Below are positions 45,048-53,111 of a DNA stretch of 64,000 nucleotides, in pieces; within the stretch, counting starts at the first letter, position 1; the number at the start of each line of letters is the position of its first letter. The stretch comes from a candidate division TM6 bacterium GW2011_GWE2_36_25. Lineage in GTDB: Bacteria; Babelota; Babeliae; Babelales; UBA12409. Where the stretch lies: NCBI GenBank assembly GCA_000991575.1, contig LBRU01000001.1, forward strand, positions 84,722 to 148,721, written 5' to 3'. A program made the translations under genes and the position numbers. Below the pieces are notes generated by a model. That model did not search any database. It saw nothing but the letters and a program-made list of their open reading frames with translations, and was not told the origin of the DNA.

Positions 45048-48000
45048 ATGAATAAAAATATGGGTAAACGTTCTTCATGGTTATTCATTTTAATTATTTT
45101 TTTTATCAAAAATTTTTCTGCTGTAGTTACAAGTCCCCTTGAATCAGTGGCTGATTTTAAAAATACAGGATTATTTGATGGGCAATTGTCTTCGGCCAAA
45201 GTTTCAGGAGATATTTCTGGTAATGGTATAAAAAATTTTGTTGCTGCAACGACTTCTTTGGGTGAATTAAGGGACATTAAAATTGTTGGCAATGTTAATG
45301 CTGCAAAGGGTGCTTATACGATTGGACTTAAACTTAATGGCCTTGTTCAGCCAAGTAAAATTTTTAGTGACAAAAAGCAGTTTGATGCTCTCTTTTCCTT
45401 TAAAGATCCCGTTATTCTTATTTCGAATGTTGATGGAGATGAAAAGCTCTTTGGTTTGGCGGTTGCAAAGGGAATATCCTGTGTAAGTGTTCTTGAGCCT
45501 CAGGGTAATGAATTTGGCAAAATTTTATCAGACCTAAAGTTATTTCAGCTAACTATTCAAACAGATTTTTCATTTGCAACATGGAAAATGCCTTTTAATG
45601 GTGTAGAGGACTTGTGTTTAAAAAGTATATTAGAGCCCTATGTTACGAAATCTCGCCTGGAAAATGTTGCTGAGCTTAAGAATAAGGTTGAAAGAACGTG
45701 CATAAACAATCCCGTTGCAGAATTAATTTTTATTAAGGAAGATATTGGTTTGCGCATTGCGGGTAAATCATCAGATGGTGCAAAAAATTTGTTTTTAGTT
45801 AATCCCCTTGAAGATAATTCTATGCAAGTAAATGTGGCATCACGTTATGATATTCCAGCAAAACTTTCAATGGTGGCGCCAAGGCTGAAGCCATTTGATA
45901 ATGTTCTTCAACCAAGAAATTTAACGCTTGTCTATCGAAGTGGTGACATTCTCAAGGAAAAAGAAAAAGAGGGTATTGCGAGTGAAGAAGAACTTATTTA
46001 TGTGGATAAAGCGCCTCAATTTACTGATGATGTTCAATTTTTAGATTTTAATTATTACAAAAATGGAATAACAACCGTTTGCGAAGGAGTTGTGGGGGGT
46101 CCATTAAAAAATATTTTTTCTGATTCATTTATAATTAAAATTTATGATCAGCCGGGAATTATTAATAAAAAACAAGAAGATTTCTTTATTTATTTTACTA
46201 ACTTTTCGAGTAAAAAACTTTGTCTTGCTGATATTTTGAAACAGGTAAAAGGAGCTGGCAAGTTTCAGGAAGCTTTAAAAATGCTCAGTAATGCAGAAAT
46301 TTGTTTTACCTATAAAGGTATTGCAGTTAATCAAGCACGTTCGATCGAACAAGAAACAGGGGAGCTCTTTATCGTTATATTGGGCGAGATAGATTTGTGG
46401 GGGGCCAAACAAGATGTTGAAGTATGGTTAACGTACAGTGACGGTTTGTCTGTAACTTTCGCTTTTCGTGGAAAAGGAGAGTTTAAGTTAAGTAATATTA
46501 ATTCAAAACTTAAGTCCGTGGATGGTTTAATGAGTATGCATGATGCAATTTTAATTGTGGCGACCGATCTTAAAGGTCCCGTTCTTTTACCAATTCCACT
46601 TAAAGAAGAAGGAATTATTGTTGGCGGAAATCTTTCATTTAGTGGCTTTTTAAAAACCACTTTTGATCTCTTGAAAATGACCTCTCCTTATGGTCACGTT
46701 ACTCTTCCATTATCTTTGATTGAGGGAGGTATTGGTGTTGGTGCTTATCAGGCATATGAACCTCCATTAGTTTTGATGGAAAAGATTAAAGTTTATTCAA
46801 CTGATTTTAATGTGAAGTTAGAAATGGGAATGCCTGAATTTGAATTGAAGTTGGCATCTGATGTAGATTTGGCAGGAAAGATTTTCAAAACAATTTTTGT
46901 AGGATCAATTGCACCACTTACTTTTTCATTAGGGGGAAGATTGGAAGGTAATATTTTAAATAGTCCTGGAGGCTTTCCTGTTACGGTAAATGATCCGACG
47001 CTTATTCTTAATTTTGCTGGTGGACTGATTTCTGGTTTAGGTGGTGGTGGGTCATTCAAGGTTGGTGATGAGGATTTATCATTTTTCCTGAATGTTAATG
47101 CTGCTGATCCTAAAAAATTAGCGGTAGCGGGTTATACTGATAAATTATGTTTTCCTGATCTTATGATATTGTGGCAGAAATTGGCTCAAAAAGCTGTTCC
47201 TGGTTTGCAAATCCCTGGTTTGGGGTGTCTCCATGATTCATATCTTGTTTTTGCAAAAAGTGATTATGCAACCGGAGGATTACCGTTGCCAGAAAAACTA
47301 CAAAAAACGTTATTTGTGAAATATGGCCTTCCTAAAGGTATTTCATTTGATGGGAAAGGGGATTTTTTGGGCATGAAAGTTCATGCAAATGGAAATGTTT
47401 CAGATATGGGAATTCGTTTTATTGCTGAAACAACTCCTTTGAACATCGAAAATCTTTTTGTGTTAACATCGATCACTGATACATTAGTTGGTCCACATAT
47501 GGAAGAGCGTTTAGATTTTTCTGAGCAGATAGTTGATCTTGATGGTAAATTGCAGATTGGTAAGTCTCCGGCGATTTTATCAGGTCAATCAAAGGTTCAC
47601 ATTGATCCTCATGGTGGATTTTTTGATGTGAAGGGGAAGATGGGCATTTTTGATGTTGATGTTATGGGTACGGCTGACTTCTTATTTGATAAATCAAAAA
47701 TAAGCAAAACAATTCTTAATGGTAAAATAACCAGCGGATTGGACAATCTGGTAAACAAAGCCCATCAAAAAGTACAGGCGGTTGTAGAAGGGTGGAAAAA
47801 TTCTGCAGGTTCTATGGTAAGCAGTATTAATGATAGCATTTCTGAGATTAATAATGCGTGCAATAAGGTTCCATTGTTTTCATGTTCAACAGTTTTAAAA
47901 CCATTTAAGAAAGTTGTTGATGATATCTCTCTCGTTAATAATGCGCTGAGTAATTCTTTTGAAAAATTAACAGCACCCTTTATTTTTAAGGAAGCTTCTT

Positions 48001-53111: not shown

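Follow-up and report, generated by a model that had tools for sequence, protein, structure and literature searches.

We have found that two genes in a 64,000-nucleotide stretch of DNA (the window) from the candidate division TM6 (Dependentiae) bacterium GW2011_GWE2_36_25, an intracellular parasite not in culture (contig LBRU01000001.1, positions 84,722 to 148,721; G+C 36%) encode anciently diverged paralogues, and that these belong to a small, previously undescribed protein family rather than forming a two-member oddity. The genes, A (45048-48446, 1132 residues, ATG start) and B (50445-53111, 888 residues, GTG start), had been described in an earlier note, made from the letters alone, as encoding two giant collinear paralogues of an unrecognised secreted family; at 888 and 1132 residues we would call the products large rather than giant, and the two open reading frames (ORFs) are as that note gave them. 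Identical 1132- and 888-residue products are annotated by NCBI in assembly GCA_000991385.1 (contig LBRK01000001.1), B is the NCBI entry 'hypothetical protein DIC20_03500 [Candidatus Dependentiae bacterium]' (P0003), and an ENA assembly containing this locus carries the label groundwater metagenome.

Comparison of their sequences identifies A and B as true paralogues, as the earlier note had claimed. Residues 518-1037 of A align with residues 317-822 of B at 25% identity over about 560 residues (composition-adjusted BLASTP, E=1e-40), phmmer gives a value of about 1e-35, and the Smith-Waterman score of 425 compares with 49 ± 6 for 200 shuffles of B (z=60), so that the similarity is no artefact of low complexity. 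When A, B and one orthologue of each were aligned with MAFFT (alignment A1), the proteins proved collinear from Cys190 of A and Cys41 of B through to the C-terminus, and all five of the blocks of similarity that had been picked out by eye were aligned in the same order. The orthologues, P0002 of A (79% identity) and P0004 of B (84%), were both assembled from run SRR22388267 and both belong to another species, and the duplication that gave rise to A and B must therefore be older than the split of those two species; P0001 is identical to A. No third copy of A or B was found with phmmer among the ORFs of the window.

The N-terminal third is far more diverged than the remainder, and there the pairwise similarity of A and B is not significant (z=1.4). 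Residues 386-506 of A align with residues 205-315 of B by profile-profile comparison (E=7e-4), in register with the first of the five blocks (Block 1), and the correspondence of the first module in the two proteins is drawn from just two things, the collinear cysteine pairs and the match of module 1 to module 2 described below. Because Cys190 of A aligns with Cys41 of B, the extension peculiar to the N-terminus of A comes to about 150 residues and not to the 250 or so at first supposed; internal insertions and a longer tail in A make up the remainder of the 244-residue difference in length. A stretch resembling this extension is also present in P0013 (residues 480-578, domain E=5e-6).

Both proteins contain three modules, each opened by the motif K-x-C-[LF]-x-D-[LI] with a second cysteine 21-31 residues further on. 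The first half of module 2 can be aligned with module 1, the motif setting the register (hhalign, E=6.5e-5 over 161 columns), and in profile comparison module 3 resembles neither of the other two except in its cysteine motif. One further conserved pair of cysteines (C938-C946 in A, C719-C730 in B, of 10 and 12 cysteines in total) lies at the turn of a predicted helical hairpin and is kept in A, P0002, B, P0004 and the family consensus. The best-conserved motif of the family, PFGFP..L.DP.L.I..A.G.LTG.G..G, stands at the end of module 2. Judging from motif scans and domain tables, the members of the family are internally modular and vary in their number of modules: the opening motif occurs five times in the 2388-residue P0013 and nine or ten times in the 3086-residue P0015 (the regular-expression count takes in one copy in the leader), added copies of module 2 or module 3 are present in P0008, P0009, P0011, P0013 and P0015, and the beta part of module 3 occurs twice in P0008, P0011, P0013 and P0015. 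The most distant members (P0021-P0030) have only part of module 3 in common, without the cysteines. It is possible that the conserved cysteine pairs form disulfides.

The family is real but rare. Word-indexed searches, whether the query was A, B or the four-sequence profile, gave beyond the query itself only one close orthologue each, and it was when 1.84 billion protein cluster representatives were searched exhaustively with a HMMER profile that 28 relatives came up at E<=1e-3 (17 of them at E<=1e-10 and 11 at E<=1e-30), 316-3086 residues long and mostly singletons from SRA, ENA and JGI assemblies. Pattern scans of 185,579 GTDB species representative genomes, of JGI metagenomes and of IMG/VR gave no confirmed relative. 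Every genomic context observed is bacterial, and where a placement is possible it is in Dependentiae. The earlier view that the family is an unrecognised one is borne out: no Pfam, NCBIfam or PDB-sequence match was obtained for A, B or 26 homologues, and Foldseek matches are weak and local (TM-score <=0.29). Searches of Pfam and NCBIfam at lax thresholds, and of the PDB with single sequences and with profiles, gave for A, B and the homologues only coiled-coil noise; no Pfam or NCBIfam domain is shared among the members even at E<=1, those that recur being coiled-coil-type noise in the helical tails, and asparaginase or Big_5 domains occur in single members only (Big_5 in the distant P0022). 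By comparison with Pfam, NCBIfam, the PDB and BFVD, then, the family is new at the level of family and of fold assignment, and we make no claim of novelty of mechanism. We note that in Chromulinavorax destructans 44% of the coding sequences carry signal peptides and that this set is enriched in ORFans (PMC6561590); with orphan exported proteins so abundant in the phylum, one more such family would not astonish specialists.

We are fairly confident of the predicted architecture, an all-beta amphipathic meander. The AlphaFold2 models were built on alignments of 22 and 23 sequences; that of B has a mean predicted local distance difference test (pLDDT) score of 78.5 and a predicted TM-score (pTM) of 0.59, and that of A a mean pLDDT of 67.7 and a pTM of 0.49, with values of about 80-90 over the core (residues 440-1040) and poor ones over the first 180 residues and the tail. 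In both models each cysteine motif carries a short helix, after which the chain passes into runs of four to six long strands; past the beta runs it forms a long helical hairpin, whose turn holds the cysteine pair, then a sheet of three strands, and it ends in a helical tail. The individual strands are antiparallel, 8-14 residues long and joined by tight turns: in the model of B there are 40, of median length 9.5, which make up 44% of the protein and accord with the description of the family as beta-rich, and of the 29 loops that lead directly from one strand to the next, 20 have three residues or fewer. The two faces of the strands average +2.0 and -1.4 on the Kyte-Doolittle scale, with a polar face in 32 of 37 strands. 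Two candidate architectures were rejected, namely a beta-helix or tandem Ig-like adhesin, which is contradicted by the strand geometry (long hairpins) and by motif counts, and an outer-membrane barrel, for which a C-terminal beta-signal is lacking (A ends in ...GLVT and B in ...EQIK). The earlier exclusion of an autotransporter barrel and of Pmp, RTX and cadherin-like signatures stands: neither protein has a Pfam match to the autotransporter barrel (PF03797) or to RTX, Big or cadherin domains, GGA[ILV] is absent, FxxN occurs four times in A and three times in B, as expected by chance, GG.G.D is absent, and the single YD..G match is a chance one.

A search of the PDB with Foldseek returned three matches to the model of A at E<=1e-3, all of them chains of ApoB100 (E of 3.4e-5, 6.2e-5 and 7.3e-4; probability 0.90, 0.77 and 0.60). 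The same chains rank fifth, seventh and eighth for the model of B (probability 0.57-0.77; the best E of 3.9e-3 at 0.77), which has no PDB match at E<=1e-3 and none in BFVD. Other matches are to large beta-barrels, namely LptD, ushers and Tom40/VDAC (TMt <=0.29). At most, the resemblance to ApoB100 may be taken as a local analogy and a lead, and not as a fold match or as homology.

The sole strongly hydrophobic segment of A, and likewise of B, is N-terminal, with a hydrophobic region (h-region) of 10-14 residues followed by small-residue sites, and a short hydrophobic leader is present in most homologues as well, as the earlier note had it for A and B. Of the 26 more distant homologues, about 20 have signal-peptide-like starts, often with the first cysteine motif directly behind. 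By eye, the leaders look like cleavable-type signal peptides, and together with the conserved cysteine pairs they point to an extracytoplasmic location. As for the earlier word 'secreted', secretion is what the leader and the cysteine pairs together suggest.

Features of A, B and their surroundings in the window (positions of the window)
Feature	Position	Strand	Remarks
Type II secretion-like cluster and MoxR ATPase	32864..42100	-	secretin, T2SS-M-like, PilM/GspL, second secretin, GspC
551-residue orphan, then NAD-dependent epimerase	42234..44950	+	upstream of A, on the strand of A
Paralogue A	45048..48446	+	1132 residues, stop codon included
A leader, about residues 1-25, signal-peptide-like	45048..45122	+	only strongly hydrophobic 19-residue window; h-region about 12; cleavage judged by eye
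A-specific N-terminal extension, residues 28-180	45129..45587	+	absent from B; alignment A1; mostly pLDDT <50
A module 1, residues 181-385, loop C190-C218	45588..46202	+	motif scan; hhalign match to module 2
A module 2, residues 386-690, loop C392-C419	46203..47117	+	contains Blocks 1 and 2
A module 3 beta part, residues 691-896, loop C701-C727	47118..47735	+	contains Blocks 3 and 4
A helical hairpin, residues 898-974	47739..47969	+	C938-C946 at turn; DSSP helices H898-938, H947-974
A three-strand sheet (Block 5) and C-terminal helical tail, residues 979-1132	47982..48443	+	tail of low confidence
GC-rich hairpin, terminator-like on both strands	48453..48471	.	8-pair and 6-pair stems, T-rich tails; consensus match only
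PI-PLC-like downstream ORF, 452 residues	48496..49854	-	no family member; precomputed Pfam PF26146 PI-PLC_X, PF26178 Rv2075c_cat
PI-PLC-like upstream ORF, 112 residues	49869..50207	-	leader and HNAF motif; precomputed weak Rv2075c_cat match
Paralogue B	50445..53111	+	888 residues, GTG start, stop codon included
B leader, about residues 1-19, MKKFLIFFIGISLIFSAYS	50445..50501	+	top hydrophobicity window of the protein; probable cleavage
B module 1, residues 38-207, loop C41-C71	50556..51065	+	model: two helices, eight long strands
B module 2, residues 208-507, loop C210-C231	51066..51965	+	pLDDT 88-95 over residues 230-510
B module 3 beta part, residues 508-686, loop C510-C541	51966..52502	+	motif scan and model
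B helical hairpin, residues 688-761	52506..52727	+	C719-C730 at turn; motif scan and model
B three-strand sheet and C-terminal helical tail, residues 763-888	52731..53108	+	tail of low confidence

The place that A occupies in the genome is conserved, and its occupant changes fast and by gain and loss of modules. The order type II secretion system (T2SS) cluster, MoxR gene, 551-residue orphan, epimerase gene, family member is kept in the window, in the locus of the 79% orthologue (L001) and in a third locus (L007); in the last of these the flanking proteins are 55-74% identical to those of the window, and the resident family member has 2388 residues and 21% identity over 457 residues. The orphan (42234-43889, plus strand), which has no Pfam or PDB match, bears a leader and a C-terminus of the outer-membrane beta-barrel type (...WKLWFKVGVSF), is 63-86% conserved and lies in the three genomes always between the MoxR and epimerase genes; it may be a major outer-membrane protein of the lineage, or a partner of protein A. 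The T2SS-like cluster itself (32864-41012, minus strand) comprises two secretins of 815 and 779 residues, a PilM/GspL fusion-like gene, GspC with a PDZ domain and a weak T2SS-M-like gene, and no ATPase, platform or pseudopilin gene adjoins it. The core genome of TM6 includes T2SS components, with gspD in two copies (PMC4776705), and the presence of two secretin genes in the window agrees with this.

Between A and B lies, on the minus strand, a gene for a protein like phosphatidylinositol-specific phospholipase C (PI-PLC; 48496-50207), on which A converges and from which B diverges, the orientation given in the earlier note. The GC-rich hairpin of the table sits between the converging stops of this gene and A. 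The gene is divided into ORFs of 112 and 452 residues that lie in different frames, the longer of which contains LCHGGCG and opens with a signal-peptide-like segment of its own, MKYILLCFLIIASIPCSLQA; our own Pfam hmmscan and PDB sequence search with the gene gave no match. Three assemblies (NCBI, Logan SRR3309375 and ENA SRR1658344) all show this division, which therefore did not arise as an error in assembling a single data set; it could reflect a pseudogene, two proteins or a recoding site.

Downstream of B (53261-56871) there is a run of further leader-bearing genes, with a 276-residue cysteine-rich orphan, a 417-residue helical protein whose C-terminal part is rich in glycine and serine, and a 388-residue, effector-looking protein with a leader and weak, sub-threshold matches to the DnaJ J-domain and to leucine-rich repeats. 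Elsewhere, two unrelated contigs (L006, 15397-17726, and L009, 16314-19284) have in common a phosphoribosyltransferase-type gene before the family member and, after it, an orphan ORF and a gene for a pentapeptide-repeat protein, a second small conserved neighbourhood that is unlike that of the window. The homologue P0012 is encoded on a 332-kb contig (L003, contig_74710) with a G+C of 43%, the first part of which (1-23954) has an unusually large number of short ORFs without a Pfam match around an HSP70 gene.

Quite apart from the family, a gap between genes of the window (23914-24516) holds at 24104-24343 eight DnaA boxes (TTATCCACA), seven of them perfect and one with a single mismatch, in two oppositely oriented clusters of four, those on the minus strand at a spacing of 11-12 bp. 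The gap is flanked by the gene for uracil-DNA glycosylase and by nusA, with no adjacent dnaA, and the boxes fall exactly at the minimum of the cumulative GC skew. It is likely that 24104-24343 is the chromosomal replication origin.

What might A and B do? We suggest, as a tentative reading that we consider quite possible rather than probable, that they are exported, disulfide-stabilised modular proteins that bind a lipid or membrane surface. The proteins would be exported by the Sec pathway into the periplasm, would fold there oxidatively, and would then be released or displayed at the cell surface or on the host side, possibly via the neighbouring T2SS. The hydrophobic face of the beta-sheet would bind a lipid or a membrane surface, in the way of a lipid-transfer groove or of ApoB100 with its amphipathic beta-belt. 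The proteins would act together with the PI-PLC-like enzyme whose gene separates theirs, the parasite being unable to make lipids. Each step after export is conjectural, and we infer leader cleavage, disulfides, the secretion route, lipid or membrane binding and the link to the PI-PLC-like enzyme alike. TM6 bacteria are without fatty-acid and lipid synthesis, and the means by which they take lipids from the host is unknown (PMC4776705, PMC6561590); in ApoB100 the C-terminal part forms an unbroken amphipathic beta-sheet belt that lies on lipid and has helical inserts (PMC11839476). Binding of lipid by A and B would fit both a parasite that makes none and the phospholipase-C-like neighbour, and a PLA2_B gene lies near P0016. 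The C-terminal tails of homologues also give weak helical matches of the apolipoprotein and phasin types. We regard as rather unlikely a more specific version in which A and B would be a convergent bacterial counterpart of the amphipathic beta-sheet lipid carriers of eukaryotes (like the ApoB belt or like a groove), and would join the PI-PLC-like enzyme in stripping, wrapping or shuttling lipids of host membranes to the parasite.

Several observations weigh against the proposal that A and B bind lipid. The likeness to ApoB100 is local only (TM-scores of 0.05-0.20, a root-mean-square deviation of 20-68 Å and 8-10% identity), and any long antiparallel meander may score in this way, LptD, Tom40, VDAC and ushers turning up too. 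A view of the models at the level of strands does not tell an open belt or groove from a barrel or a sandwich, and sandwiches and barrels should show alternating strand polarity just as well. The matches of the helical tails are noise of the usual coiled-coil kind, no homologue has a known function, and other family members, those of the B type included, are found in unrelated bacterial contexts. Phospholipase genes are nearby in only two of eight distinct contexts. As to the route, we know of no sequence signal carried by T2SS substrates, so that the route cannot be read from the sequence; the leader and cysteine pairs are consistent with Sec export and periplasmic folding, and there is synteny with T2SS genes in three genomes, neither of which proves the route.

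Other explanations have to be considered. Doubtful, and yet deserving of attention, is the possibility that the proteins stay on the outer surface, perhaps held there by the outer-membrane-like orphan, and serve in attachment to or uptake by the protist host or as a protective layer, so that the sheet would be a scaffold without any role in lipid binding. The leaders and conserved cysteine pairs suit a surface adhesin or coat equally, and the variation in module number, with lengths of 316-3086 residues, is of a kind seen in many adhesins. The same may be said of positional counterparts that diverge much faster than their neighbours (21% as against 55-74% identity), of the shared orientation of A with the outer-membrane-like orphan and the sugar epimerase gene, with a terminator-like hairpin after A, and of the autotransporter gene that adjoins one B-type homologue and the Big_5 domains of one distant member. 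Nevertheless, A and B have no Ig-like, cadherin, beta-helix, Pmp, RTX or autotransporter signature, their long hairpin strands are unlike the short strands of Ig-like and beta-helix adhesins, and no anchoring motif was found, neither a lipobox nor a C-terminal beta-signal. We think it decidedly unlikely that the amphipathic hairpins instead insert into the host vacuolar membrane as a pore or translocon that permeabilises it or delivers factors. The length of those hairpins, a partial Foldseek likeness to Tom40/VDAC (probability 0.6-0.9, TMt about 0.25-0.29), LptD and ushers, and the phospholipase-like neighbours might suggest such a role, as might single weak matches of homologues to the models for xenorhabdolysin-A and NheC. 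Those toxin-model matches, however, are isolated and lie amid coiled-coil noise, the TM-scores are far below fold-level similarity, no match to the MACPF, aerolysin, ETX/MTX2, leukocidin or ClyA families was obtained, and the polar strand faces carry a high charge all along the protein, not just in one or two hairpins that might insert.

The earlier note had also proposed to test for a resemblance to AsmA/TamB-like proteins, and none was found in the domain, PDB-profile or Foldseek comparisons. If A and B were divergent proteins of this kind, an uncleaved anchor would hold them in the inner membrane and a beta rod spanning the periplasm, made of repeating grooves, would move phospholipids between the bacterial membranes; we judge this unlikely. 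The idea would suit proteins with a hydrophobic helix at the N-terminus and, behind it, a long body made largely of amphipathic beta strands, and the groups of about four to six strands parted by short helices recall repeating beta-groove units, each of which consists of five strands and a crossing element. AsmA-like proteins typically occur as several paralogues per genome and have sizes like the 888-1132 residues seen here, and a lipid auxotroph must move lipids through its envelope. Against this, neither A nor B has a match at E<=1 to AsmA, AsmA_2, TamB/DUF490 or related Pfam and NCBIfam models, and none of these is among the 25 most frequent families listed over the 26 homologues. No TamB, VPS13 or ATG2 chain appeared at E<=10 in the PDB profile search, nor, with whole chains as queries, among the top 50 Foldseek matches in the PDB of either model. 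The short h-regions followed by small residues make the leaders look cleavable, cysteines are paired in every module, the tenfold range in length is incompatible with a periplasm of fixed width, and a housekeeping protein of the envelope would be expected to be widespread and not absent from every GTDB species representative in the pattern scan. Lastly, the notion that the blocks of similarity are compositional or that the ORFs are not genes, to which the insignificant pairwise score of the N-terminal third might lend some colour, is refuted by our tests and can be dismissed as next to impossible: besides the overall alignment statistics, there are orthologues of A and B at 79-84% identity in another species, identical genes in several independent assemblies and 28 family clusters.

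The Dependentiae, obligate parasites of protists, are widespread, and their means of obtaining lipids from the host and of dealing with its membranes are acknowledged unknowns (PMC4776705, PMC6561590). If A and B do carry host lipids to the parasite, they would provide a first molecular handle on the acquisition of membrane lipids in this phylum, and a lineage-restricted exported family with a conserved place beside secretion machinery and a PLC-like gene between its copies offers a concrete candidate that can be expressed. Even should the idea of lipid binding fail, the family adds a modular fold unit, a cysteine loop with a beta-meander, that current domain libraries do not cover.

The family may be compared with several known systems. 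Like the modular surface proteins of the chlamydial Pmp type, its members have a Sec-type leader, have expanded as paralogues, diverge fast and are found beside exported orphan and effector-like genes; unlike Pmp autotransporters, A and B lack GGA[ILV], an excess of FxxN, a beta-helix passenger and a C-terminal barrel, and their strands would form a hairpin meander. With BPI and other TULIP proteins the models have in common long twisted antiparallel strands packed with helices, and there is a faint profile match to residues 72-147 of BPI, but at E=0.18 it is not significant and no TULIP structure is among the Foldseek matches. AsmA, TamB and YhdP resemble A and B in size, in their N-terminal hydrophobic segment, in a long all-beta amphipathic body with periodic short helices and in having several paralogues, whereas the family described here has a cleavable-looking leader, conserved cysteine pairs, a tenfold range in length and a very narrow distribution. 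ApoB100, which heads the Foldseek matches for A and turns up repeatedly in those for B, differs at the level of sequence and overall fold (8-10% identity, TM-scores <=0.20), has 120 strands as against about 40 here, and is not bacterial; A and B have no Pfam match to its vitellogenin-like N-terminal domain, and ApoB lacks the cysteine loop that heads each module. Nevertheless, the C-terminal beta-belt of ApoB100 and the predicted structures of A and B are alike in their consecutive long amphipathic antiparallel strands, in the tight turns between them, in their helical inserts and in having elements stapled by disulfides.

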